From Microscillaceae bacterium (GTDB lineage: Bacteria > Bacteroidota > Bacteroidia > Cytophagales > Microscillaceae), in the NCBI GenBank assembly GCA_003483885.1, contig DMXI01000559.1, positions 1 through 49,016 on the forward strand: DNA of 49,016 nucleotides, in the 5' to 3' direction. The translations under genes were made by a program, and so were the position numbers. The number at the start of each line of letters is the position of its first letter. Position 1 is the stretch's first letter. The notes under the pieces are model-generated. The model searched no databases. It was not told where the DNA came from and was given only the letters and a program-made list of their open reading frames with translations. Shown here piece by piece: positions 19,172-43,343 of the stretch.

Positions 19172-22100
19172 ATGGCCGATAAAAAACTCTTTGCCTTGTG
19201 TGTAGGCATCAATGAATACCCAACAGGGGTAAGCAACCTGGCAGGTTGTATTGCTGACGCCGAAAACTGGAAAAACTTTTTGGAAACCCATTATCAAAAA
19301 ACGCTCTCCCCAGAAGTACTTCTATTGACCAACGGCCAAGCTACTCGTAAAGGCTTTATAGATGCTTTTCGCAATCACCTGGGTCAAGCTCGTGACGGAG
19401 ACACGGTTTTCTTTCACTACAGTGGTCATGGCTCTCGAGAAAAATCGCCCTCGGCTTACTTAAAGTTTTTCCCCGATGGAATGAATGAAACACTGGTATT
19501 GAGTGACAGTCGGGCTACTAACGAGGATGGTAATTATACAGGGCACGATTTGGCCGATAAAGAACTAGGAAAGCTTCTCGAGGAAGTCATTATAGATAAA
19601 CCGAACTTAAACTTAATAGTATCGCTGGATTGCTGCCACGCTGGTTCAGGTACCCGAGATGTTTCTGGTCTGGCAAATCCACGCCTTACTGGCGATCGCA
19701 CTGACGATGCTCGTTCGTTTGAAACCTACCTCCCTGGTATTTTTACAGGGGCAGAAGTAACCCCTCCCTCTAGTAAACATGTATTGTTGGCTTCTTGCTC
19801 TAAATACCAAAAGGCTTGGGAAACCAAAGAACACACGGGGCTTTTTACTACTTCGGCACTAGAGATACTTGATAAATATGGTACCCAAACTACTTTTGCC
19901 GATTTATACACCCGCACCCGCACATTGATGCGAAAAACCACCAATATTCAAGACCCTCAATTAGAAGTACACGAAAAATACAATGCCAACCAAGTTATTT
20001 TCACGGGTGGAACTTTAGAAGGGGCAGGTCAATACACTCGAAGAATTTACCAAGTAGATAATGTTTGGAAGTTAGATTTTGGGGCCATTCATGGTATGCC
20101 CAATGATAAAACTATAGAGCTAGCTGTATATGAGAGTGCAGATGATTTAAATCAGCAAAAATCTCTGGGCAATGCTAAATCCGTAGACGTAACCGGACAC
20201 AAAACTACCCTTGAGCTTGATTTTGAAGCCGATGCTAATCAAGAATACATTGGGGAGTTTCTCGCGCCACCTACACCTCCCCTTAACGTGTTTATTTATG
20301 GTGCCCAAGAAGGTCAAGAGTTTCTCCAAAAAACGTTTGAAAAACACCCCAGTCTGAATTTTACCTTAACCACCATGGATGATCAGGATGGTTATACTTT
20401 TGATGCAAAATACATCGAGCAAGACAACCCTCACCCCTATTTTGGTGAAGTCAAGATCATCGATAAACAAGGGCAATTAATCACTCCTAAGGCAGGAGAT
20501 TACAACCTTGTGGCTTACTTTGATGGCTACTTCTTATTGGACGAAAATAATCGCCTGATTAAAGGTTGTAAAAGTGGTTATGATGATGATCAAGCCATTA
20601 TCATATTATTCCAACTTCTGGACAAAATCGCCAATTGGGAAAATCTAACGGTCCTTCAAAATAAAGCACCTAAACTGAATCCTGACGATGTAGAGTTCAG
20701 CCTATATGCAGGAGAGAATCAAGAACAAATCGCAGGAACAGAATTCACCGCTTCTTTGGTGGAAGTAGATGATCCTGATGTACCTTGGCCAAGCATTCCT
20801 TTTGAGTTACGATTCAAAAATAACACGAAGCAAGGTCTACACATTTCATTGATATATCTGGATGATCATTATACAGTAATCCCTCTTTATAATGACTACA
20901 TAGAGTCTAAAACTGGCGAAACTACGCTGATAAGCGATGGGTTGCAGATATTAAGTAACAATAGAGACGAAAGTGGTAGGGCATATGATGAAGTGTTAGA
21001 TGAATATCGTTTTAATCAAAGTACAATGATCTTTAAGTTACTAGTCAGTACTGAGCGTCTGGATGACTTTACATTGGAACAAGCCGGCTTTGATATAGGT
21101 CATATTTCTTATAACAGAATACTGGCTTCAAGGGTGAAAGGTGGCATTACAAAACCTGTAAAAAACGATTGGTTTACCAAAACAATCCGAACATACACGA
21201 TACGTCAACGCTCCAAACTAAGCAAAAACGACTTAGCGTTAGGAGAAACCAAACAATTGACCATCAAAGGTCAGGAACAAGTAGCAGCCAATGTAAAGCT
21301 GAGTAGCAGCAATTCTGGCAGTCGCAGCGCTGACAAAACTTCTCTCATGATGAGTTTGCTCGAACAACAGGATGGAAACCTGATCAATTTTGATGGAGCA
21401 GTGGGTGGTACTAATGTATTAGAAATCAACGATGTTCAAGGCGATGAAAAACTCGCAGAAACCCCATTGGAACTCACCCTCAAAGAGGCGGTCTCAGATG
21501 ATGAGTTGCTCCTGCCCCTTACTTTTGACGGAGAACACATCTTTTCGATTGGTGAAACCCAAAGCCTGGAAAATGGCCATACCAACATTGCCATTGATGA
21601 AATACCGGTCGTAGAAGAAGGAAGCCGTAGTTTAGGCAAATCGCTCAAGTTGGCCTTTTTTAAAATCGCCCTCAAGCGCCACCCCGAAAAGATTTATCAA
21701 TTGGCTTGGGTAGAATATTTGAATAGCCAAGATAAAAAGAGCAAGGGAATTATCCAGCGCCATCGGGATAATGACGAAATAGCCAAAAAGGTAGCCAATG
21801 CTACGAAGATCTTGCTGTTGTTGCATGGCATCATTGGTGATACCGAAGATATGGCCATTGCTGTAAAAGAAATTGCGGCCGAAAAGGGGTATGATTTGGT
21901 GCTGAGCTTTGACTACGAAAACCTCAACTCTTCTATAGAAAAAGACATTTCCTGGTCATTGAAAAATCAACTCGAGCAGGTGGGCTTCAAAGCCGATGAC
22001 AGTAAGGAATTGCATATTTTAGCCCAAGGAATGGGCTGTTTAGTAGCTCGCTGGATGGTAGAACGCCGAGGAGGCAACCAATTGGTAGATCGGATGATTT

Positions 22101-22600
22101 TAGTTGGGCCTCCTAGTGGTGGATCGGTATTGGGTACTCTGGAGGCTTATCGCAAATTGGCCACTACAGCGCTCAGTATTGCCGTCAATGTATTGTTGCC
22201 CTTTGCGGGTTGGGCTGGTGGTTTACTCAAAAACATAAAAACCGCCCTTAAACAAGGACAGAAGCTTACCACTACGTTGGCCGAAATGCACGAAAACTCT
22301 ACTTTTATCCGGGATTTGAACGACAGCGATGACCCAGGAGTGCCTTATGCCATTGTAGCAGGAGATGTACGTACATATGAACCAAGTGATGGTAGCAGTT
22401 TCTCTAAGTTTAGAGAAAAGCTTTCCACCAAATTGGGCACTTTTGTAAATGGAGGCGATGCCAATGACATGATTGTGGACTACGCCTCGATGAAACAAGC
22501 GGGAAAAAATAGCCAAGTGGAGATTACGAAGGTGGTTTGTCATCATTTAAACTACTTTCAGGAAGAAGTGAGCCTGGAGACCATCAAAAACCTTTTGTAG
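19172..22600 (+). CDS. Caspase-domain (peptidase C14, orthocaspase-like) protein fused to C-terminal alpha/beta-hydrolase-like domain; ~500-aa uncharacterised middle region
   Basis: 1142 aa; N-terminal ~280 aa with caspase catalytic dyad His (FHYSGHGS) and Cys (DCCHAGSG); C-terminal ~300 aa with alpha/beta hydrolase landmarks LLLHGIIGDTEDM, nucleophile-elbow-like AQGMGCLVARW (Ser position occupied by Gly), VGPPSGGSVLG. Confidence 0.85.
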   Translation: MADKKLFALCVGINEYPTGVSNLAGCIADAENWKNFLETHYQKTLSPEVLLLTNGQATRKGFIDAFRNHLGQARDGDTVFFHYSGHGSREKSPSAYLKFFPDGMNETLVLSDSRATNEDGNYTGHDLADKELGKLLEEVIIDKPNLNLIVSLDCCHAGSGTRDVSGLANPRLTGDRTDDARSFETYLPGIFTGAEVTPPSSKHVLLASCSKYQKAWETKEHTGLFTTSALEILDKYGTQTTFADLYTRTRTLMRKTTNIQDPQLEVHEKYNANQVIFTGGTLEGAGQYTRRIYQVDNVWKLDFGAIHGMPNDKTIELAVYESADDLNQQKSLGNAKSVDVTGHKTTLELDFEADANQEYIGEFLAPPTPPLNVFIYGAQEGQEFLQKTFEKHPSLNFTLTTMDDQDGYTFDAKYIEQDNPHPYFGEVKIIDKQGQLITPKAGDYNLVAYFDGYFLLDENNRLIKGCKSGYDDDQAIIILFQLLDKIANWENLTVLQNKAPKLNPDDVEFSLYAGENQEQIAGTEFTASLVEVDDPDVPWPSIPFELRFKNNTKQGLHISLIYLDDHYTVIPLYNDYIESKTGETTLISDGLQILSNNRDESGRAYDEVLDEYRFNQSTMIFKLLVSTERLDDFTLEQAGFDIGHISYNRILASRVKGGITKPVKNDWFTKTIRTYTIRQRSKLSKNDLALGETKQLTIKGQEQVAANVKLSSSNSGSRSADKTSLMMSLLEQQDGNLINFDGAVGGTNVLEINDVQGDEKLAETPLELTLKEAVSDDELLLPLTFDGEHIFSIGETQSLENGHTNIAIDEIPVVEEGSRSLGKSLKLAFFKIALKRHPEKIYQLAWVEYLNSQDKKSKGIIQRHRDNDEIAKKVANATKILLLLHGIIGDTEDMAIAVKEIAAEKGYDLVLSFDYENLNSSIEKDISWSLKNQLEQVGFKADDSKELHILAQGMGCLVARWMVERRGGNQLVDRMILVGPPSGGSVLGTLEAYRKLATTALSIAVNVLLPFAGWAGGLLKNIKTALKQGQKLTTTLAEMHENSTFIRDLNDSDDPGVPYAIVAGDVRTYEPSDGSSFSKFREKLSTKLGTFVNGGDANDMIVDYASMKQAGKNSQVEITKVVCHHLNYFQEEVSLETIKNLL

Positions 22601-22711
22601 TAATTGAATTAATTTATAAAAGGCCACTAAACATTTATTCTGCTATAAAAAAACGAATTTCGAATAATGAAGGAAACTGAAAATGTCCAGTAGTACGAAT
22701 TTATAAATACA

Positions 22712-22748
22712 ACGACAAATGGCTCAAAAGCTGTTTGTCGTTTTTTAT
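22712..22748 (+). terminator. Rho-independent terminator after caspase-fusion gene
   Basis: acgacaaa ... tttgtcgt 8-bp stem followed by tttttt. Confidence 0.55.
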
Positions 22749-22807: not shown

Positions 22808-23773
22808 ATGAACACCCCCATACGCATAGAATTGCCCACCATTTTTGGGATGAAAACGGTGAATGCTTATTTATTTTTGGAGCCTACTCCTACCCTCGTG
22901 GATTGTGGCGAACAAACCGATAAATCCTGGGAGGTACTGCAGGCGGCACTGGCTGAACATCAATTGCAAATTCAGGATTTGGCTCGAGTAATTATCACTC
23001 ACGCCCATGTAGACCACATAGGAATGGCGGGTAAAATCGCATCTGAAAGCCCTCATACCGAAATTTGGGTTTCTGAGTATGCTTACAATTGGGCAGTAAA
23101 TCCCCAAGAAATGAACAACATTCGCCAGCAGGTAATGCAAGAATATATGCAGTTGTTTCCTCAATTTGTCAATTCACCTTTTCAGCAAATGATGGTACAA
23201 CTATACAAAAAAGCGAGTTCGACCTGGGGCGAAATACCGAAGGATCGCATCAGAAAGTTTACACTGGAAGAGAAGCTGCATCTGGGTAACCTGGATTGGG
23301 AAATTATTTATGCGCCAGGGCATTGCAATCATCAAACTTGCTTTTACCAGCCCGATACCCGACAACTCATTTCGGCTGATATGTTGCTTTCTATCACCCC
23401 TTCGCCCGTCATAGATGTCACTCTTAAGCCTCCCTATAAGCGAGAAAAAAGCTTACATCAGATGATTGAATCGTTCCATAAATTTGCGGCCATGGACATC
23501 GATCAAGTATATCCTGGACATTATGAACCCTTTCAAAACCATCGCGAAATCATTCAAAAACAATTGGACCGCATCAATATGCGCAAAAAACAATGTTTGG
23601 AACTTATCAAAACAGGGGTTGATGATTTTTTTGTATTGCTGACTGAGCTTTACGGAAAAAGTTTTCCCATTCCAGCCATTCCTATGTTGGTAGGTTATCT
23701 TGACTTGTTGGCGGAGGAGCGCCTCATTACTACCAACAAAACCAAGCAAGGTCTTAAGTACTATGTCACCTAA
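22808..23773 (+). CDS. MBL-fold metallo-hydrolase
   Basis: 321 aa; HAHVDH (HxHxDH) motif and downstream His/Asp ligands typical of metallo-beta-lactamase fold. Confidence 0.75.
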   Translation: MNTPIRIELPTIFGMKTVNAYLFLEPTPTLVDCGEQTDKSWEVLQAALAEHQLQIQDLARVIITHAHVDHIGMAGKIASESPHTEIWVSEYAYNWAVNPQEMNNIRQQVMQEYMQLFPQFVNSPFQQMMVQLYKKASSTWGEIPKDRIRKFTLEEKLHLGNLDWEIIYAPGHCNHQTCFYQPDTRQLISADMLLSITPSPVIDVTLKPPYKREKSLHQMIESFHKFAAMDIDQVYPGHYEPFQNHREIIQKQLDRINMRKKQCLELIKTGVDDFFVLLTELYGKSFPIPAIPMLVGYLDLLAEERLITTNKTKQGLKYYVT

Positions 23774-35678: not shown

Positions 35679-38237
35679 TTAATCTTCGTCTTCCTCATCC
35701 ACTACATCATCTTCCATTCCATTGAGGCTAGACTCTAGCACATTGGCCAGCTTGGTCCCTTTAAGCATATTGGTAAACACCTGGGCTACACTCTTGCCTC
35801 CCAAAATAGCCAACGGTGACATCGATTTGGCCATTTTTTCAGCCAATGATTTATCAGCAAAAGCTTGCAAGGCTGCAATCAAATTGGGCGACACCGCTTC
35901 GGCTTTGTTTACTACTGCCTGTACCTCAGCTCGAAGTAGCTCAAGCTCTTGATGCAATTCTTTTTGGGCAATTTCCAGTACCAACTCCTCTTCTTTTTGC
36001 TTACGAGCCAGTTCGGCATCTTTGATCTGAGTCAATGAATCTTGTTCAGCTAAATTGGCCTCCAGCTGACGTTGCTTAGACTGTATCTCCATGTCTAGTT
36101 TTGCCAAAATAACCTCAAGCTCCTTTTTAGATTCTTTCTTTTCCAAATCAAATTGCTTTTGGGTAGTATCAGACTTGGTACTGGCAATCTGTTGGTTAAT
36201 TTCTTCGCTTTGTTGGGTAAACTCTAATTTACGTTTTTCAGCATCTATGCGCAGGGTTTGCTTAACAACCTCTTGTTGGGCCGAAATGAGTAAGTTTTCA
36301 ATACTGACATCACTCAAACGAATGTCCAGCACCTCGATGTCATAAATACGCATGTTGTTTTCTTCAAACACTCGCCCAGGACGCTTATTGTTTTCTCCAG
36401 CTTGGCCCAAGATACTGTTGCGTAAAATATCGATACCATTGGCATAAAAATCCATAATGGTGTGTTTCTTTACCACATTGCGAATAAACGAACGCATATG
36501 GTCAGTCAAAAACTTGACATAGTTCTCTACATTGAACCATTTGTCCGATTCTTCTTCAAAATTGACCCGGTAAGAAATGGTAATGCTTACTTGGGTAAAG
36601 TCAGAAGATTCGGCTTTGACAATATCAGATATTTTGTTGTGCAATACCCGTAAATACACCGTGGTAATGGTGTTATCAGAGGTTTTGGGTGTTCCGGTAG
36701 AAAGCGTGATGGGCTCCAGGCTTTCGTCATACTCTAGTAAATAAGTCTGAGGGCCAGCAATGACTTTGCGTTGCCCAGTTTTGCTTACCACTAAAATAGC
36801 ATATCCAGTCCAAAGGTTAATGGTTACAGCGCCATCGTATTTGGTATCTAGAGTGATGGTACGAGGTGGGGTAAAAGTTTGCTCCCGGGTAAATTCATCT
36901 CCCGCCATTTCTTTCGATACCTTTTCTTTCTTTTTACGACGAGGGGCTGGCATAGGAATTTCATCAGCCAGTTCTTCAGCTTCCATCGCGGCGGCGGCTG
37001 GCTCTGCCGATATTTCCAGGTACCCTTCGTTAGACTTACGTCGGTCCAGCTCTTGTTTAAGTTGGCGGTTGTATTCCAAAGCTTCGCTATTGCCCGGAAA
37101 CCACAGCTTTACTTGCTTGGGGTCTAGGACCCGTTTTACAAACACCGCCTCGCGAGGGTCAGGCAAAAACATCACGGGGCCTTTTTTGAGTGATACTTTT
37201 CCGGTTTTTCGGTTGAGGTAATAACGCCCCTCTCCTGCCGGGATGGCAATGGCGTAGTGTCGCTCTTTTTGCCCATACTTGATAATGGCATGCTCAGGAC
37301 GAGGGTAATAAATCATTTGTTCATTACCAGTTACAAACAACTCCTCCCCTTCTTTGAAAGAAGTACCATTCTCCTCATAAGGAGCAATTACTTTGATGTA
37401 CAACCCACTCATCTCGTTGAGTTCAATGGCTCGAAACTTACGCGACCCATTACGGTATACAAATTCTTCGGTAGGCTCTGGGAAAACTACCGCGGGGCCT
37501 TGAATGTAACGCTTATTGCCATCTTCATCCAATAAAATACAATACTCTAAACGCTCCAAAGTGACCGCTTCTCGCACGTAGTTTCCATTCACCCCTCGTA
37601 CTACTTCTATCCCAGTAGGAGGAATATAAAAAGAAACCGCATCCCCTTTGATGATAAGCATCTTACCCATGGTCAAATCGGGCATTTCTTCCAGGTTTGT
37701 CAAATCGGTATCAGAACCCTCCCCTCCTTCTTTATCTTCCTCCCCATCTTTTGCCTCAGTAGAATTCTTGGTTTTAATCACCGCCTTGGTCCAGTTTTGT
37801 CGAGCTTCTTCTTCGTCGTATACCCTTACAGCCAAGTACTGATTGGAGCGTAAATTATGCCCACGCAATACTTTAACCATTTGTCCAGGCCAAAGCGCAA
37901 AATTGATAGGCCCTGGAATGTTAACTTTACGTCCTACATTCAATGCAGTAAGGTTATTTACGGTACCATTCTGAGGTTGGGTACCATCCTGAGACGGGTT
38001 TTTCATGACTACATACCAACCTTCGGGAGCAGTAGTAAAGGTTTGAAGAGAATTGTCCAGGTTAGAACGTTCGAATTTTTTAGTATCGGCATCAAAAATC
38101 ACCGGTTTATCGGTGTTGGCCAAACTGGTTTTATAAGGGCCTACATATACGTTGATGTTTCCCTTGGTTTGGTCAGATATAAAAGCAAATTCATTGGGAG
38201 CGAGCACCAAATCGCGCTCTCGGTTTGAGTCTGACAT
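35679..38237 (-). CDS. Major vault protein (MVP) homolog
   Basis: 852 aa; N-terminal ~470 aa of consecutive ~55-aa beta-rich MVP-type repeats, shoulder/SPFH-like segment (VSITISYRVNFEEESDKWFNVENYVKFLTDHMRSFIRNVV collinear with vertebrate MVP shoulder), ~170-aa heptad coiled-coil (cap-helix) and C-terminal segment EAVSPNLIAALQAFADKSLAEKMAKSMSPLAILGG collinear with MVP [36 protein letters not shown]. Confidence 0.8.
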   Translation of the reverse strand: MSDSNRERDLVLAPNEFAFISDQTKGNINVYVGPYKTSLANTDKPVIFDADTKKFERSNLDNSLQTFTTAPEGWYVVMKNPSQDGTQPQNGTVNNLTALNVGRKVNIPGPINFALWPGQMVKVLRGHNLRSNQYLAVRVYDEEEARQNWTKAVIKTKNSTEAKDGEEDKEGGEGSDTDLTNLEEMPDLTMGKMLIIKGDAVSFYIPPTGIEVVRGVNGNYVREAVTLERLEYCILLDEDGNKRYIQGPAVVFPEPTEEFVYRNGSRKFRAIELNEMSGLYIKVIAPYEENGTSFKEGEELFVTGNEQMIYYPRPEHAIIKYGQKERHYAIAIPAGEGRYYLNRKTGKVSLKKGPVMFLPDPREAVFVKRVLDPKQVKLWFPGNSEALEYNRQLKQELDRRKSNEGYLEISAEPAAAAMEAEELADEIPMPAPRRKKKEKVSKEMAGDEFTREQTFTPPRTITLDTKYDGAVTINLWTGYAILVVSKTGQRKVIAGPQTYLLEYDESLEPITLSTGTPKTSDNTITTVYLRVLHNKISDIVKAESSDFTQVSITISYRVNFEEESDKWFNVENYVKFLTDHMRSFIRNVVKKHTIMDFYANGIDILRNSILGQAGENNKRPGRVFEENNMRIYDIEVLDIRLSDVSIENLLISAQQEVVKQTLRIDAEKRKLEFTQQSEEINQQIASTKSDTTQKQFDLEKKESKKELEVILAKLDMEIQSKQRQLEANLAEQDSLTQIKDAELARKQKEEELVLEIAQKELHQELELLRAEVQAVVNKAEAVSPNLIAALQAFADKSLAEKMAKSMSPLAILGGKSVAQVFTNMLKGTKLANVLESSLNGMEDDVVDEEDED

Positions 38238-39541: not shown

Positions 39542-40963
39542 TTAAGCCTCTCGACGCAGGAACGTACTAGTTGCCTCATTATATTCATAACCATATTTAG
39601 CCATCAAGGCTTGAACACCCGCATAGCCATTTTCAATCGTATCTAATTCAAGTTTGTAAGAACTTGTTCTGGTACTACCTTCTTTATTACTTACTAAGCG
39701 TACTTTATCCCCCCTCTGAAAGGCAGATTCAAGAAAAGGAAGGTTGAACTGTTGCCAGACAAAAGTCTGCGCAACCGACATGGCCAATGTCAGTATAAGT
39801 TTGATATGGCCTTCACTTAAATATTCACGCGCTTTCTGTTTTACTTGTTCTAAGTTTAAATCATCCAAATCAGATAAGTGACTTTCTTGTGCAAATTTAC
39901 GCAAATGCTGTGAAAGAAAATCTTTTTGGGCATACTCTACAATTTCATCATAATCTACCACAGCCAAAACTTTGAGTCCTGGAATATCGCTATCATATAA
40001 TCCCCCACCTCCTCTCACTTTTGCCATTGTACCTTCTGGTAATCCTTTGATATCGAGATCACCTCCTTTGAATCCTACAAAATTTCGGGTACCACCGGAT
40101 AGAGGATTGGTCCATTCTTCACCAAATTTTCCTAATAGAAGCGTGGACTTGCTATCATCATCTATGACTACATCTCCTCCAAAACCGTGATATAAAAACT
40201 TGACAATGCCGTTTTCCTTTACCGCAAACTCTTTGTTGTTTTCCGCATCCTGGTAATGGGTAGTGTCCCCATCTTCAACCACATTGACGTTAGGATTACC
40301 CTCCAACTTTCTAACCAGGTTTTGAATTTTGTCATCTATGCGAGGTATCAGCCTACGTTGTACTGGCCCGCCAGAAGATACCACCCCTTGCTGCCCTAAA
40401 TTTTCGGTACCTTGATTCTCTTTCCTCTGCAAAGGCTGCGCCGCCATATTGTCTACGGTTTGCTCTCGGGTGGTATCTACCGATTGTCCATTAACTACTT
40501 TGTCGCCTTTTGGGGTGCCATTTTTAGCGTTGTCTATGGCGTGGGCCACTTCATGTTTCATGTTGGCCTCCGTGTCTTTGCCAGGAGCAAAGTCAATTTT
40601 GTTGCCTTGAATGGTGGCTTCGGCATTGACCGTGTCTGGGAAGGACGAATTATGGGTGGCTTTGAGTTGAGAAGTATCTACCCCGTGTTGTTGCCCCATA
40701 GTGGTAGCTATTTCCTTAAACTTGGCGGAGCCTTGGGGTTGCTCCCCCTTTGTTTGCCCAGTAGTGTTGCGTTGCACGGGTCGTTGCTTGGCTTGAACCG
40801 GCCTTTGTTTGGATTGGATGGGCTTCTGCTTGGCCTGAATTGGCTTTTGTTTCGCTTGAACAGGTTTTTGCTTCGCCTGAATTGTGCTCTGACTTTGTGT
40901 AGTTGATGGATTATTTTGTTTTTGAACGTTGTGGTTATCATTAGATAAAGCGTGCTGATGCAT
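39542..40963 (-). CDS. DUF4157 (eCIS-associated toxin-type metallopeptidase-like) domain protein with N-terminal QAKQKPx tandem repeat and unknown C-terminal domain
   Basis: 473 aa; DUF4157 signature layout KEIATTMGQQHGVDTSQLKATHNS ... AEATIQGNKIDFAPGK ... MKHEVAHAIDN (HExxH) ; residues 27-66 five 7-aa repeats; C-terminal ~300 aa no recognised family. Confidence 0.65.
   Translation of the reverse strand: MHQHALSNDNHNVQKQNNPSTTQSQSTIQAKQKPVQAKQKPIQAKQKPIQSKQRPVQAKQRPVQRNTTGQTKGEQPQGSAKFKEIATTMGQQHGVDTSQLKATHNSSFPDTVNAEATIQGNKIDFAPGKDTEANMKHEVAHAIDNAKNGTPKGDKVVNGQSVDTTREQTVDNMAAQPLQRKENQGTENLGQQGVVSSGGPVQRRLIPRIDDKIQNLVRKLEGNPNVNVVEDGDTTHYQDAENNKEFAVKENGIVKFLYHGFGGDVVIDDDSKSTLLLGKFGEEWTNPLSGGTRNFVGFKGGDLDIKGLPEGTMAKVRGGGGLYDSDIPGLKVLAVVDYDEIVEYAQKDFLSQHLRKFAQESHLSDLDDLNLEQVKQKAREYLSEGHIKLILTLAMSVAQTFVWQQFNLPFLESAFQRGDKVRLVSNKEGSTRTSSYKLELDTIENGYAGVQALMAKYGYEYNEATSTFLRREA
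40786..40890. repeat. 5 x 21-bp in-frame tandem repeat inside DUF4157 gene (encodes KQKPVQA-type heptads)
   Basis: Visible nucleotide periodicity cttggcttgaaccggcctttg / tttggattggatgggcttctg / cttggcctgaattggcttttg / tttcgcttgaacaggtttttg / cttcgcctgaattgtgctctg. Confidence 0.75.
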
Positions 40964-41678
40964 GTGCGTTTTTAAAATTAGATAAAACCTTGAATGCTTA
41001 ATTCAATCTGGATACAAAAAGAAGTCAACTTGCGGCAAAAGGCCTTTTGCGACAAATCACCCATTTTTTCAAGGCTTTATAACAATTACTCTTTGCTACA
41101 AACCTCAAAAATCCTCTTAAACCCAGTACTAACTTCGTTTTTAAAAACTTTTTCTTTCAGGCATACACCTGATGACTGCAATCAGTAACCCTTACAAGAC
41201 ACTGCAATATATGGTTGCCTTGAGTCAATATATTTACTAATAATGCATTGAACCACATTGTACTATATCAAGAGATCTCCTTTTTATTTAATAAGATGTC
41301 ATCCTCAGGCAATCACGCTGAAAACAGGGTTAAAAAACTCTCATAAACCAAATATAACAGTGAATGTATAGTGATTAAAATAGGTTGGGGGAGGCGTATT
41401 TATTCAAAGAATTGCCTTAGAAAAAGCATTAAGGCAATACTACTTAGGCTTCTCTATGGTTTGAAAAACTTTCAATGAATGTGCGAAATGGTTTCGTTAG
41501 CAAAAACCTAACACAGGCATTTTTTTCATAAAATCTTGGCATAATTCGTTATATTACCGTTAGCATTTTGATTGGCTATAAAAATTAGCAGATTTTGTAC
41601 AGGATACATTGCTCGAAAAAGCTAATTTTGTTTGAAAACCAACTGTTACTCATACCAAACATTCAAATAGTTATTTCT

Positions 41679-43343
41679 ATGAAGTTGAAAAGTATTTTTG
41701 TAGTAGGTTTGCTACTCGCTCAAATAGGTTTGGCCAATGCCAAAACCCCTGCTACTAAGAAGTTCCCTTATCCTATTATTCATCTCCAGGAAGTGTACTG
41801 GGTAGTAGGCAGTGACACATCCAAGACACCTCCTAAAAACTGGTTTAACCTAGACACCAAAAAAGACAACATTCGGGGAGTAAGTACCGAAAGGGTATAT
41901 GAGACCTTGTTGAAAGGCAAAAAATCTACTACCGTAGTAGTAGCCGTGATTGACTCTGGCATAGATACCAAACATCCAGACTTGAAAGAACACATTTGGG
42001 TAAACCCCAAAGAAAAACCAGGAAATGGTAAAGATGATGATAAAAACGGCTATGTAGATGACATCAACGGCTGGGATTTTATTGGTGGAAAAGACGGCAA
42101 AGATGTAGATGCAGATACTTATGAAGTAACTCGAGAGTTGGTTCGTCTAGAAAAAAAATTTGCGGATAAAGACCCCGAAAAACTACGCAAAAAAGAAAAG
42201 AAAGAATATCAGTATTATCTCAAGGTAAAAAAGTCTTATACGAGACAAGCTTCGGAAGCACGCCAGGGATATACTGTGATGAAACAAATTTGGGCGGCTT
42301 ATCAGGTCGTGCAAAAAAGTCTGGACAAAAAAGAATTCACCAAAGAGGATCTTGATAATATCAAAAGTGATGACCAGGACGTAGTACAAGCGGGTCAGAT
42401 CTTAAAACGTGCCATTGGGTTTGGTATTCCTTTGAACCAAATCGGAGATGCTTACAAGCAATACGAGTCTATGTTTAAATATGGGGTAAACAAGGATTTT
42501 AACCCTCGTACTATTGTGGGAGATGACTATAAAAAACTAGACGAAAAAGGTTATGGAAACAATGAAGTACAAGGCCCAGACGCAGACCATGGCACACACG
42601 TAGCCGGTATTATTGGTGCAGATCGCACCAACGATGTAGGCATTAAAGGTGTAGCCGACAATGTAAAAATTATGGTACTAAGAGCAGTGCCTAATGGAGA
42701 CGAAAGGGATAAAGACATTGCCAATGCCATTCGTTATGCAGTGGATAACGGTGCGCGCATTATCAATATGAGTTTTGGTAAATCTTTTTCACCAAATAAA
42801 GAATATGTAGACAAGGCTGTAAAATATGCCCAAAAGAAAGGAGTACTTCTGGTACACGCTGCGGGTAATGATGGCTCTAACCTGGATGAAAATGATAACT
42901 TCCCCAACAAAAACTTTAAGAACTCTAAGAAATTTGCCAAAAACTGGATTGAAGTAGGAGCTTCTTCCTGGGGAGATGAAAAGAATTTTGTAGGTGGTTT
43001 TTCTAACTACGGTAAAAAGACGGTAGATGTATTTGCTCCTGGAGTAGCTATTAACTCTACCATTCCTGATGACAAATATACTGAACATGATGGTACCAGT
43101 ATGGCAGCCCCAGTAGTTTCAGGAGTAGCTGCTTTGTTGATGTCTTACTTCCCTGACTTGAGCGCTGAAGATGTGAAAGAAATTATTTTGAAATCCTCTG
43201 TAAAATATACAGATAAGGAAATCAACAAGCCAGGAAGCCGTAACGGACAAACCATCAAGTTTGGAGAATTATCGGTAACTGGAGGTATTGTAAATGCCTA
43301 TGAAGCTGTAAAAATGGCGCAAAACTGGAAAAACAACAAATAA
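41679..43343 (+). CDS. S8 family serine peptidase (subtilisin-like), secreted
   Basis: Catalytic triad contexts VAVIDSGID (Asp), HGTHVAGII (His), GTSMAAPVVSG (Ser); signal peptide MKLKSIFVVGLLLAQIGLANA (ORF extends to 41595). Confidence 0.85.
   Translation: MKLKSIFVVGLLLAQIGLANAKTPATKKFPYPIIHLQEVYWVVGSDTSKTPPKNWFNLDTKKDNIRGVSTERVYETLLKGKKSTTVVVAVIDSGIDTKHPDLKEHIWVNPKEKPGNGKDDDKNGYVDDINGWDFIGGKDGKDVDADTYEVTRELVRLEKKFADKDPEKLRKKEKKEYQYYLKVKKSYTRQASEARQGYTVMKQIWAAYQVVQKSLDKKEFTKEDLDNIKSDDQDVVQAGQILKRAIGFGIPLNQIGDAYKQYESMFKYGVNKDFNPRTIVGDDYKKLDEKGYGNNEVQGPDADHGTHVAGIIGADRTNDVGIKGVADNVKIMVLRAVPNGDERDKDIANAIRYAVDNGARIINMSFGKSFSPNKEYVDKAVKYAQKKGVLLVHAAGNDGSNLDENDNFPNKNFKNSKKFAKNWIEVGASSWGDEKNFVGGFSNYGKKTVDVFAPGVAINSTIPDDKYTEHDGTSMAAPVVSGVAALLMSYFPDLSAEDVKEIILKSSVKYTDKEINKPGSRNGQTIKFGELSVTGGIVNAYEAVKMAQNWKNNK

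Follow-up and report, generated by a model that had tools for sequence, protein, structure and literature searches.

In bacterial conflict systems, caspase domains were reported to come invariably with a gene for an alpha/beta hydrolase (Kaur, Burroughs, Iyer and Aravind 2020, PMC7159879). In these NTPase-centred systems the two kinds of effectors co-occur obligatorily as neighbouring genes of the MoxR-vWA (VMAP) and GAP1 systems, which are overrepresented in Cyanobacteria, Bacteroidota, Planctomycetota and further bacteria with a multicellular or social lifestyle (PMC7159879, PMC8195603). nSTAND1 was named as a conflict-system NTPase (Kaur et al. 2021, PMC8195603) and was also found in putative antigen sensors diversified by diversity-generating retroelements (PMC10907252). 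More recently, a caspase-like protease was reported to cut a separate alpha/beta-hydrolase zymogen at two conserved Arg-Gly sites, whereupon the cleaved hydrolase fragments kill cells, and metallo-beta-lactamase (MBL)-fold effectors cleaved by caspase-like proteases also exist (Evans et al. 2025, PMC12642450). Here, we analyzed a 49,016-nucleotide stretch from a Microscillaceae bacterium (contig DMXI01000559.1, below called the window). One of its genes, located at 19172..22600 (+), encodes a caspase domain, a large beta-rich middle region and a lipase-like alpha/beta-hydrolase domain in a single chain. The hydrolase domain of this protein has lost its nucleophile and has nevertheless been maintained by purifying selection.

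The protein family represented by this gene resembles the LcCaspase/LcHydrolase module of Lysobacter capsici (PMC12642450) in pairing a caspase-like cysteine protease with a lipase-like alpha/beta hydrolase. Both are tied to sensors, STAND or beta-transducin-repeat proteins in the case of the Lysobacter-type modules and nSTAND1 in the case of the present family. The logic may be alike as well, with a latent effector licensed by proteolysis; the cleavage-type sites are Arg-Gly in LcHydrolase and, as candidates, Arg-Ser/Gly in the present family, the hydrolases having been compared by description only. Unlike the two-protein Lysobacter module, the protease and the hydrolase studied here are parts of one chain of 1142 amino acids with about 590 amino acids of beta-rich domains between them, and the hydrolase of the window's lineage is without a nucleophile. 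The NTPase-centred systems of Kaur and colleagues share the co-occurrence of caspase and alpha/beta-hydrolase effectors and differ in that these are encoded by neighbouring genes instead of a fused chain.

We consider it somewhat probable that the family consists of nSTAND1-linked caspase-lipase proteins likely acting as conflict executioners, and that the lineage of the window has kept a maintained pseudo-lipase, leaving the caspase as the sole catalytic output.

Domain architecture and distribution of the fusion

The gene is a single uninterrupted open reading frame (ORF) with an ATG start and zero internal stops in the ORF listing, and its product is an intracellular protein without a signal peptide. 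The motifs quoted in the original prediction were all located in the protein, namely FHYSGHGS (residues 81-88), LDCCHAGSG (152-160), LLLHGIIGD (882-890), LAQGMGCLVA (950-959) and VGPPSGGS (978-985). An AlphaFold2 model calculated from an 87-sequence alignment had a mean predicted local distance difference test score (pLDDT) of 78, and most of both terminal domains scored above 85-90.

The N-terminal domain was identified as Peptidase_C14 (PF00656, residues 7-266, E 2e-22, 80.5 bits against a Pfam cut-off of 21.4). The generic PADLOC 'caspase' model also matched the protein (E 7e-30), while the NCBIfam scan of all 1142 residues returned a caspase match only, which was sub-threshold. In Foldseek searches against the PDB, the domain, modelled mostly with pLDDT >85, matched GSU0716 (3bij, E 2.5e-12, TM-target 0.69) and metacaspases 4, 9, Yca1 and MCA2, with the caspase matches ranging from E 1e-9 to 1e-12. 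The residues H86, C155, D153, G85, G87, G158, D112 and S113 were unchanged across the 87 aligned sequences. Thus the claim of an intact caspase domain was borne out, the His/Cys dyad and all family-invariant residues being kept. The fold, the dyad and the D-x-C-H motif are shared with the metacaspases and orthocaspases of family C14B (3bij GSU0716, 4af8 TbMCA2, 4f6o Yca1); the protein differs from these in its very large fused C-terminal region, and no p10-type Ca-binding extension was identified in it. In metacaspases, as in the TbMCA2 and Yca1 structures, the Asp two residues ahead of the catalytic Cys forms the pocket for a basic P1 residue. The corresponding Asp153 sits in the D-x-C-H motif, which is invariant family-wide in the 87 sequences, and the family protease is predicted to be of the Arg/Lys-specific metacaspase type.

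The C-terminal domain was matched by DUF7379 (PF24096) over residues 881-1050 (E 2.5e-9, 37.8 bits, cut-off 33), while DUF676 and Palm_thioest remained under their Pfam cut-offs on the 1142-residue protein. Structural comparison against the PDB by Foldseek returned family I or true lipases (1ys1, 1tah, 5h6b, 6wpy). A profile of the domain placed its 'ahsmGGLvsR' segment on AHSMGG of Bacillus subtilis LipA and on GHSQGGLTSR of the Burkholderia glumae lipase, and the next motif, GTPxxGS, was aligned to the lipase motif GTPHRGS. These results agree in supporting the lipase-type alpha/beta hydrolase that had been proposed for this region. With the family I lipases (B. subtilis LipA; Burkholderia/Pseudomonas 1ys1, 1tah, 1qge), the domain shares the minimal alpha/beta-hydrolase fold and the HG oxyanion motif, retained in the query protein as H885-G886; canonical family members also share the AHSMGG/GHSQGG elbow and the GTPxxGS after the next strand. 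Only the first half of the domain resembles these lipases in sequence (E 1e-5 to 1e-7), and the query protein differs from them in its intracellular location without a signal peptide and in having Gly at the nucleophile position.

The middle region, composed of several Ig-like or beta-sandwich domains and one alpha/beta subdomain, is the fastest-evolving portion of the protein. It had been reported as unrecognizable, in agreement with our searches, in which neither Pfam nor NCBIfam nor structure comparison gave a specific match. Stand-alone proteins of about 640 amino acids exist that match residues 4-682 only, and the N-terminal two-thirds therefore form an independent module. One such relative of 635 amino acids, L088 (6001-8066), contains the caspase and the N-terminal middle module only. 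The gene following it 15 bp on begins MEKINDRLKQKPVIFLAFANDRVDYAAYLRNL and is cut by the contig end, and on the other side an ORF of >3400 amino acids lies on the opposite strand. The following gene was considered as a split-off C-terminal half and rejected, since it showed no similarity.

More than 100 protein clusters carry the same caspase-middle-DUF7379 architecture. In a collection holding one genome per species, at least 551 loci encode the fusion, distributed in Planctomycetota, Bacteroidota, Proteobacteria, Cyanobacteria, Acidobacteriota, Chloroflexota and other phyla, and an exhaustive search at 50% clustering yielded 983 representatives carrying the C-terminal domain. The proposal that the domain combination is unusual was therefore not supported, and the pairing of caspase and alpha/beta hydrolase has already been published (PMC7159879, PMC12642450); what stands out is only that one lineage has lost the nucleophile and conserved this state. 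Database records name the family only as 'caspase family protein' or DUF7379. The literature searched contained no papers on DUF7379 and no description of the fused architecture or its nucleophile-less variant, and the publications on orthocaspase architectures held nothing specific to a caspase-lipase fusion. The theme is known; new details are the fused architecture linked to nSTAND1 and a clade that has conserved the loss of the nucleophile.

Loss of the nucleophile and selection on the lipase-like domain

The elbow is [AV]HSMGG across 100 full-length homologs and AQGMGC in the query protein. Columns 952, 953 and 956 are 99-100% H, S and G in the family and Q, G and C/S in the clade of the query protein. 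All 81 canonical sequences of alignment A1 have the nucleophile Ser, and so do about 94% of the 237 family members that were surveyed. In the AlphaFold2 model, position 953 falls between strand 946-952 and helix 954-965, which corresponds to the nucleophile elbow. The register of the Ser-to-Gly and His-to-Gln replacements was thus correct, as the homolog alignment, the lipase profile alignment and the model agree. The elbow is degenerate as the original prediction had stated, but the consensus from which it departs is AHSMGG in this family and not the expected GHSMGG.

The QGMG[C/S] elbow was confined to the query protein, P0001-P0005 and L007. These belong to one syntenic Cytophagaceae-like clade in which it is fixed, while the sister sequence P0006 (50% identity) retains HSMGG. 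In the exhaustive search with the C-terminal domain, the degenerate clade comprised the top three representatives only, and beyond them identity was at most 46%. The ortholog survey suggested earlier therefore had a mixed outcome, with the fusion widely conserved and the degenerate elbow conserved only within this clade and sporadic in a few other lineages. The sporadic cases are L033 (4697-5488), P0138, P0150, P0192, P0201, P0236, P0239 and P0257, where the Ser was replaced by Gly in six of the eight; scattered Ser-less elbows read GHGLGG, HDMGG, HGMGG, QTSGG, HGSGG, SGMGG and FGMGG. For L033, no nSTAND1 gene was present in the flank available.

It had been left open whether the domain is dead or uses a non-canonical nucleophile. 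An enzyme with a relocated nucleophile would employ residue 956 together with Asp1099 and His1125. At this position, three residues past the lost Ser, the family has 100% Gly and the clade has Cys (five listed members) or Ser (two), both of which are potential nucleophiles. Moreover, Asp1099 is invariant, His1125 is kept in the query protein and the domain is under strong purifying selection. We nevertheless regard such an enzyme as very unlikely, since the two Ser956 carriers, P0004 and P0005, have Tyr1125, so that no general base is conserved throughout the clade, and the elbow His952 is lost too. In the AlphaFold2 model, residue 956 lies in the helix after the elbow and off its tip. The change from a small to a larger residue could also be explained as packing compensation for the Ser-to-Gly replacement, and other Ser-less family members retain Gly at +3 (HGMGG, HGLGG, SGMGG). 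We know of no nucleophile relocation of this kind in the alpha/beta-hydrolase fold. If the domain were active after all, its nucleophile would occupy a position without precedent among alpha/beta hydrolases. The replacement of His1125 by Tyr, found only in these two of the 87 sequences, suggests that selection no longer maintains catalysis at the active site and disfavours Cys/Ser956 as a relocated nucleophile. A pseudoenzyme is thus favoured over a non-canonical enzyme, although strong purifying selection on the domain persists.

Selection was estimated as omega by the method of Nei and Gojobori (NG86). For the dead domain, omega was 0.058 between the query protein and P0001, 0.062 between P0002 and P0003, 0.099 between P0004 and P0005, and 0.11-0.135 in comparisons with L007. 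All three domains showed omega of 0.06-0.14 within the clade, and thirteen pairs of canonical Ser-bearing homologs gave 0.06-0.37 for the hydrolase domain. In diverged pairs of the clade, the amino-acid identity of the dead domain was 69-84% vs 43-53% for the middle region. Between the query protein and L007, identity was 79% for the dead domain, 65% for the caspase domain and 46% for the middle region, with 83-94% for the flanking genes. As judged from these comparisons, the lipase domain is the best-conserved part of the protein within the clade and is a preserved pseudoenzyme rather than a decaying one. The Gly953 codon differs across the clade (GGA, GGT, GGC), and this synonymous drift indicates that the Ser-to-Gly replacement is old and has been maintained.

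These data also bear on the possibility that the protein is a functionless, decaying relic, having lost its catalytic residue after the loss of a STAND partner. Catalytic residues were indeed lost stepwise, the Ser in all clade members and then the His in P0004 and P0005, and the window, L007, L082 and L086 lack the STAND neighbour. A relic is extremely unlikely, however, as intact ORFs of 1135-1152 amino acids were found in eight independent assemblies at 55-62% identity. The omega values in all three domains are at or below those of canonical members, the catalytic residues of the caspase are invariant, and the codon drift at Gly953 points to an old, maintained state.

Apart from the elbow (H952Q, S953G, G956C/S), the clade carries replacements in the same domain at columns that are at least 86% conserved in canonical members, namely T920S, A927S, I963V, T980P, Q1038E and A1101I/V. 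Faster evolution of the hydrolase on the stem of the degenerate clade was considered by comparing clade-vs-canonical pairs with canonical pairs of the same divergence bin; it was not supported, since the ratio of hydrolase to caspase identity was 0.82 vs 0.91 ± 0.10 in canonical pairs, within one standard deviation.

The similarity pattern of the caspase domain conflicted with that of the flanking genes. The caspase domain (19172..20011) was closer to L081 and L085 (75-78%) than to L007 (65%), though the flanks were closest to L007 (83-94%). This incongruence could stem from recombination, from an exchange of alleles or from strongly unequal rates along the gene.

Association with nSTAND1 NTPases

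When neighbouring ORFs were clustered, one cluster was present in 44 of the 80 homolog loci. According to Pfam, the proteins of this cluster are either iSTAND proteins or nSTAND1 NTPases, many of the latter carrying WD40 propellers and many an N-terminal Peptidase_C14 or CHAT domain. A count with the nSTAND1 hidden Markov model (HMM) covered the 49 loci whose flanks extend for at least 5 kb on each side. It found nSTAND1 within 5 kb in 34 of them and directly adjacent in 29, with 22 of the adjacent genes located downstream on the same strand. In P0175, a metagenomic protein of 2973 amino acids, a putative single-ORF fusion joins C14-middle-DUF7379 to C14-nSTAND1-Peripla_BP_6, the last being a periplasmic-binding-protein/ANF-receptor domain. 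The association with conflict or cell death proposed for this protein thus gained support, because most family members adjoin nSTAND1 NTPases. Since the family is usually encoded beside an nSTAND1 NTPase that itself bears a caspase or CHAT domain, it most likely represents the executioner arm of a STAND-type conflict system, serving immunity or regulated cell death.

Candidate cleavage sites and proposed mechanism

Fourteen columns of the 87-sequence alignment were at least 90% Arg or Lys. Seven of the 14 (R162, R171, R649, R718, R819, K826 and K831) fall within the approximately 9% of the AlphaFold2 model that is of low pLDDT, defined as 10-residue blocks scoring <55, and the loop residues around the basic columns vary. 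R649, R718 and R819 are candidate P1 sites, and cutting at them would release residues 820-1142. The loop of residues 162-181 within the caspase domain may serve as an autoprocessing linker (Table 1). A conserved helix, SLGKSLKLAFFK, in which K831 is invariant, follows just beyond Arg819-Ser820. It was considered as an amphipathic membrane helix and rejected, its hydrophobic moment of 0.11 ranking 198 among the 1124 18-residue windows.

In the family as a whole, activation of the sensor would turn on the caspase, which would then cut after R649, R718 and R819, and possibly R171, in the disordered linkers. By analogy with the caspase-cleaved hydrolase zymogen, this could free or unmask the C-terminal lipase as the toxic output. 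In the lineage of the window, the hydrolase output would have been lost, and the STAND neighbour is also gone in most members. The caspase, with its dyad and the candidate cleavage sites intact, would then be the only remaining catalytic output. The dead lipase domain would have been retained for something other than catalysis, for example autoinhibition, scaffolding or the binding of a ligand or membrane.

Several observations weigh against this interpretation. No nSTAND1-like ORF was detected within the 49-kb window by HMM or Pfam searches, and L007, L082, L086 and the canonical sister L083 have no nSTAND1 neighbour. The clade member L081, on the other hand, keeps a C14-nSTAND1 gene 1.4 kb downstream. 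The correlation between the loss of Ser and the loss of STAND derives from a single clade, the canonical sister P0006 is also without the neighbour, and we make no causal claim. In addition, the candidate cleavage sites were deduced solely from conservation and predicted disorder. The analogy with LcHydrolase is inexact, since the sites of LcHydrolase are internal to the hydrolase, while R649, R718 and R819 all precede the hydrolase core. Finally, a stable site among housekeeping genes and vertical inheritance imply that the protein may no longer act in defence in this lineage.

Table 1. Features of the caspase-lipase fusion gene and of the adjoining region in the window.
Feature	Position	Strand	Evidence or remarks
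Whole gene, fusion of caspase, beta-rich middle region and pseudo-lipase	19172..22600	+	ORF listing; Pfam; >100 full-length homologs sharing the architecture
Peptidase_C14 domain (metacaspase/orthocaspase-type), residues 1-280	19172..20011	+	Pfam; PADLOC; invariant residues; Foldseek
Catalytic His86	19427-19429	+	Invariant column, 87 sequences
Catalytic Cys155	19634-19636	+	Invariant column, 87 sequences
Disordered loop within the caspase domain, residues 162-181 (R162/R171/R181)	19655..19714	+	Columns 100% basic; pLDDT <50 at 164-177
Middle region, residues 281-870, several Ig-like/beta-sandwich domains and one alpha/beta subdomain	20012..21781	+	
Arg649, candidate P1	21116..21118	+	98% R/K, followed by G/A/F; low-pLDDT segment 648-663
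Arg718-Ser719, candidate P1-P1'	21323..21328	+	R/K in 86/87, followed by S/G/N; pLDDT <50 at 715-721; neighbours variable
Arg819-Ser820, candidate cleavage site	21626..21631	+	R/K in 87/87, S in 82/87; pLDDT <50 at 814-827
Lipase-like alpha/beta-hydrolase (DUF7379), residues 871-1142, catalytically degenerate	21782..22597	+	Pfam; Foldseek; profile matches; omega
Degenerate elbow LAQGMGCL, residues 950-957 (H952Q, S953G, G956C)	22019..22042	+	Family columns vs clade
Gly953 codon GGA	22028-22030	+	
Asp1099, retained acid of the former triad	22466..22468	+	Invariant, 87/87
His1125, retained catalytic His position	22544..22546	+	H in 85/87; Tyr only in P0004 and P0005
Terminator-like hairpin (stem of 14 bp, then a T-run) separating the caspase gene from the MBL-fold gene	22711..22742	+	Consensus scan
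MBL-fold hydrolase	22808..23773	+	Adjoins the caspase-fusion gene

Chromosomal site and genes in the vicinity

In the clade members the gene occupies one shared chromosomal site, where it is divergent to a polyprenyl synthase gene, with rhomboid, LCM and AraC genes beyond. The same site in all members indicates vertical inheritance while the proteins diverged to 55-62% identity. In the window, the downstream genes encode an MBL-fold hydrolase, an ADP-ribosylglycohydrolase and a KdsC-like phosphatase, which are lineage-restricted and evolve like housekeeping genes. The hairpin downstream of the fusion gene suggests that the latter is monocistronic in the window.

Such a setting would fit a domesticated protease with a housekeeping or developmental function, for example in the gliding or filamentous lifestyle of Bacteroidota, the dead lipase serving as a substrate- or membrane-targeting module. 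The synteny with the polyprenyl synthase, rhomboid, MBL-fold hydrolase and KdsC-like phosphatase genes is stable in all clade members, the gene has its own terminator-like hairpin, and no defence-system context was present within 49 kb. On the other hand, the middle region diverges far beyond the flanks (46% vs 83-94% in the comparison with L007) and the similarity pattern of the caspase domain conflicts with that of the flanks, both being more typical of conflict genes. L081 also retains C14-nSTAND1, pentapeptide-repeat and LRR genes beside the caspase-fusion gene. We hold domestication as a tentative and rather doubtful alternative. As regards the role of the dead lipase it overlaps with the conflict-executioner interpretation, and the two are distinct only in the biological context.

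Somewhat less likely still, in our estimate, is that the nucleophile-less lipase now regulates or senses, perhaps as a lid of the caspase that binds a lipid or another ligand, so that a STAND-dependent executioner would have become a self-contained, chromosomally fixed caspase switch.

The position of the MBL-fold gene raises the further possibility that its product took over as the caspase-activated effector, like the protease-MBL modules of Evans et al. 2025, as caspase-cleaved MBL-fold effectors are known (PMC12642450). In the window and in L007, L082, L086 and L087, the gene after the caspase gene is the MBL gene, with a gap of 6 bp in L082 and L086. It showed a weak partial match to PADLOC LmuA in the window (E 1e-5), and its L082 and L086 orthologs showed a weak Pfam match to Anti-Pycsar Apyc1. 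However, the gene is missing from all of the 80 other homolog loci and from the clade member L081, it evolves like the housekeeping flanks (84% identity to L007), and its best NCBIfam matches are generic and far under the cut-offs (Strvi_7410, B3 lactamase, GloB). The terminator-like hairpin, moreover, separates it from the caspase gene in the window. The MBL gene was therefore rejected as a linked effector and is kept as a highly improbable alternative.

Some further genes at these loci were recorded. The segment 22808..24834 (+) carries the MBL-fold hydrolase and then the ADP-ribosylglycohydrolase, for which the nearest NCBIfam models were the Tri1 ADP-ribosylarginine hydrolase and DraG, both sub-cut-off. 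At L081 (13487-19493, from the organism of P0002), the slot of these two genes holds instead a pentapeptide-repeat gene, a C14-nSTAND1 gene (677 amino acids, without a repeat sensor), an LRR_14 gene and several ORFs without a Pfam match, and it looks like a variable island. Elsewhere in the window, an ORF of 852 amino acids at 35679..38237 (-) matched MVP_shoulder (E 9e-31) and Vault_3 (E 1e-8) in Pfam and is a homolog of the eukaryotic major vault protein. To our knowledge, major vault protein homologs are rare in bacteria. Near it are a 473-amino-acid ORF without a Pfam match at 39542..40963 (-) and a subtilase of family S8 at 41595..43343 (+).

Implications for the caspase-lipase family

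Alpha/beta-hydrolases linked to caspases have only recently been shown to be protease-activated death effectors, and the present family represents a large single-chain version of them. The family offers testable predictions, namely the three conserved Arg sites in disordered linkers, the nSTAND1 partner and the putative two-gene fusion. If the lipase did become a regulatory module, the clade would illustrate how an enzyme acting as an immune effector can turn into a regulatory pseudoenzyme in nature. The wider family would then also form a two-tier caspase cascade, in which a STAND-borne initiator acts on the caspase-lipase executioner in a manner similar to the apoptosome and executioner caspases. 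That the chemistry of the hydrolase was removed, first with the Ser and later with the His, while the domain stayed constrained suggests that it may have a second, non-catalytic job. A comparison of live and dead versions could show which roles of such effectors depend on catalysis and which are structural or regulatory.

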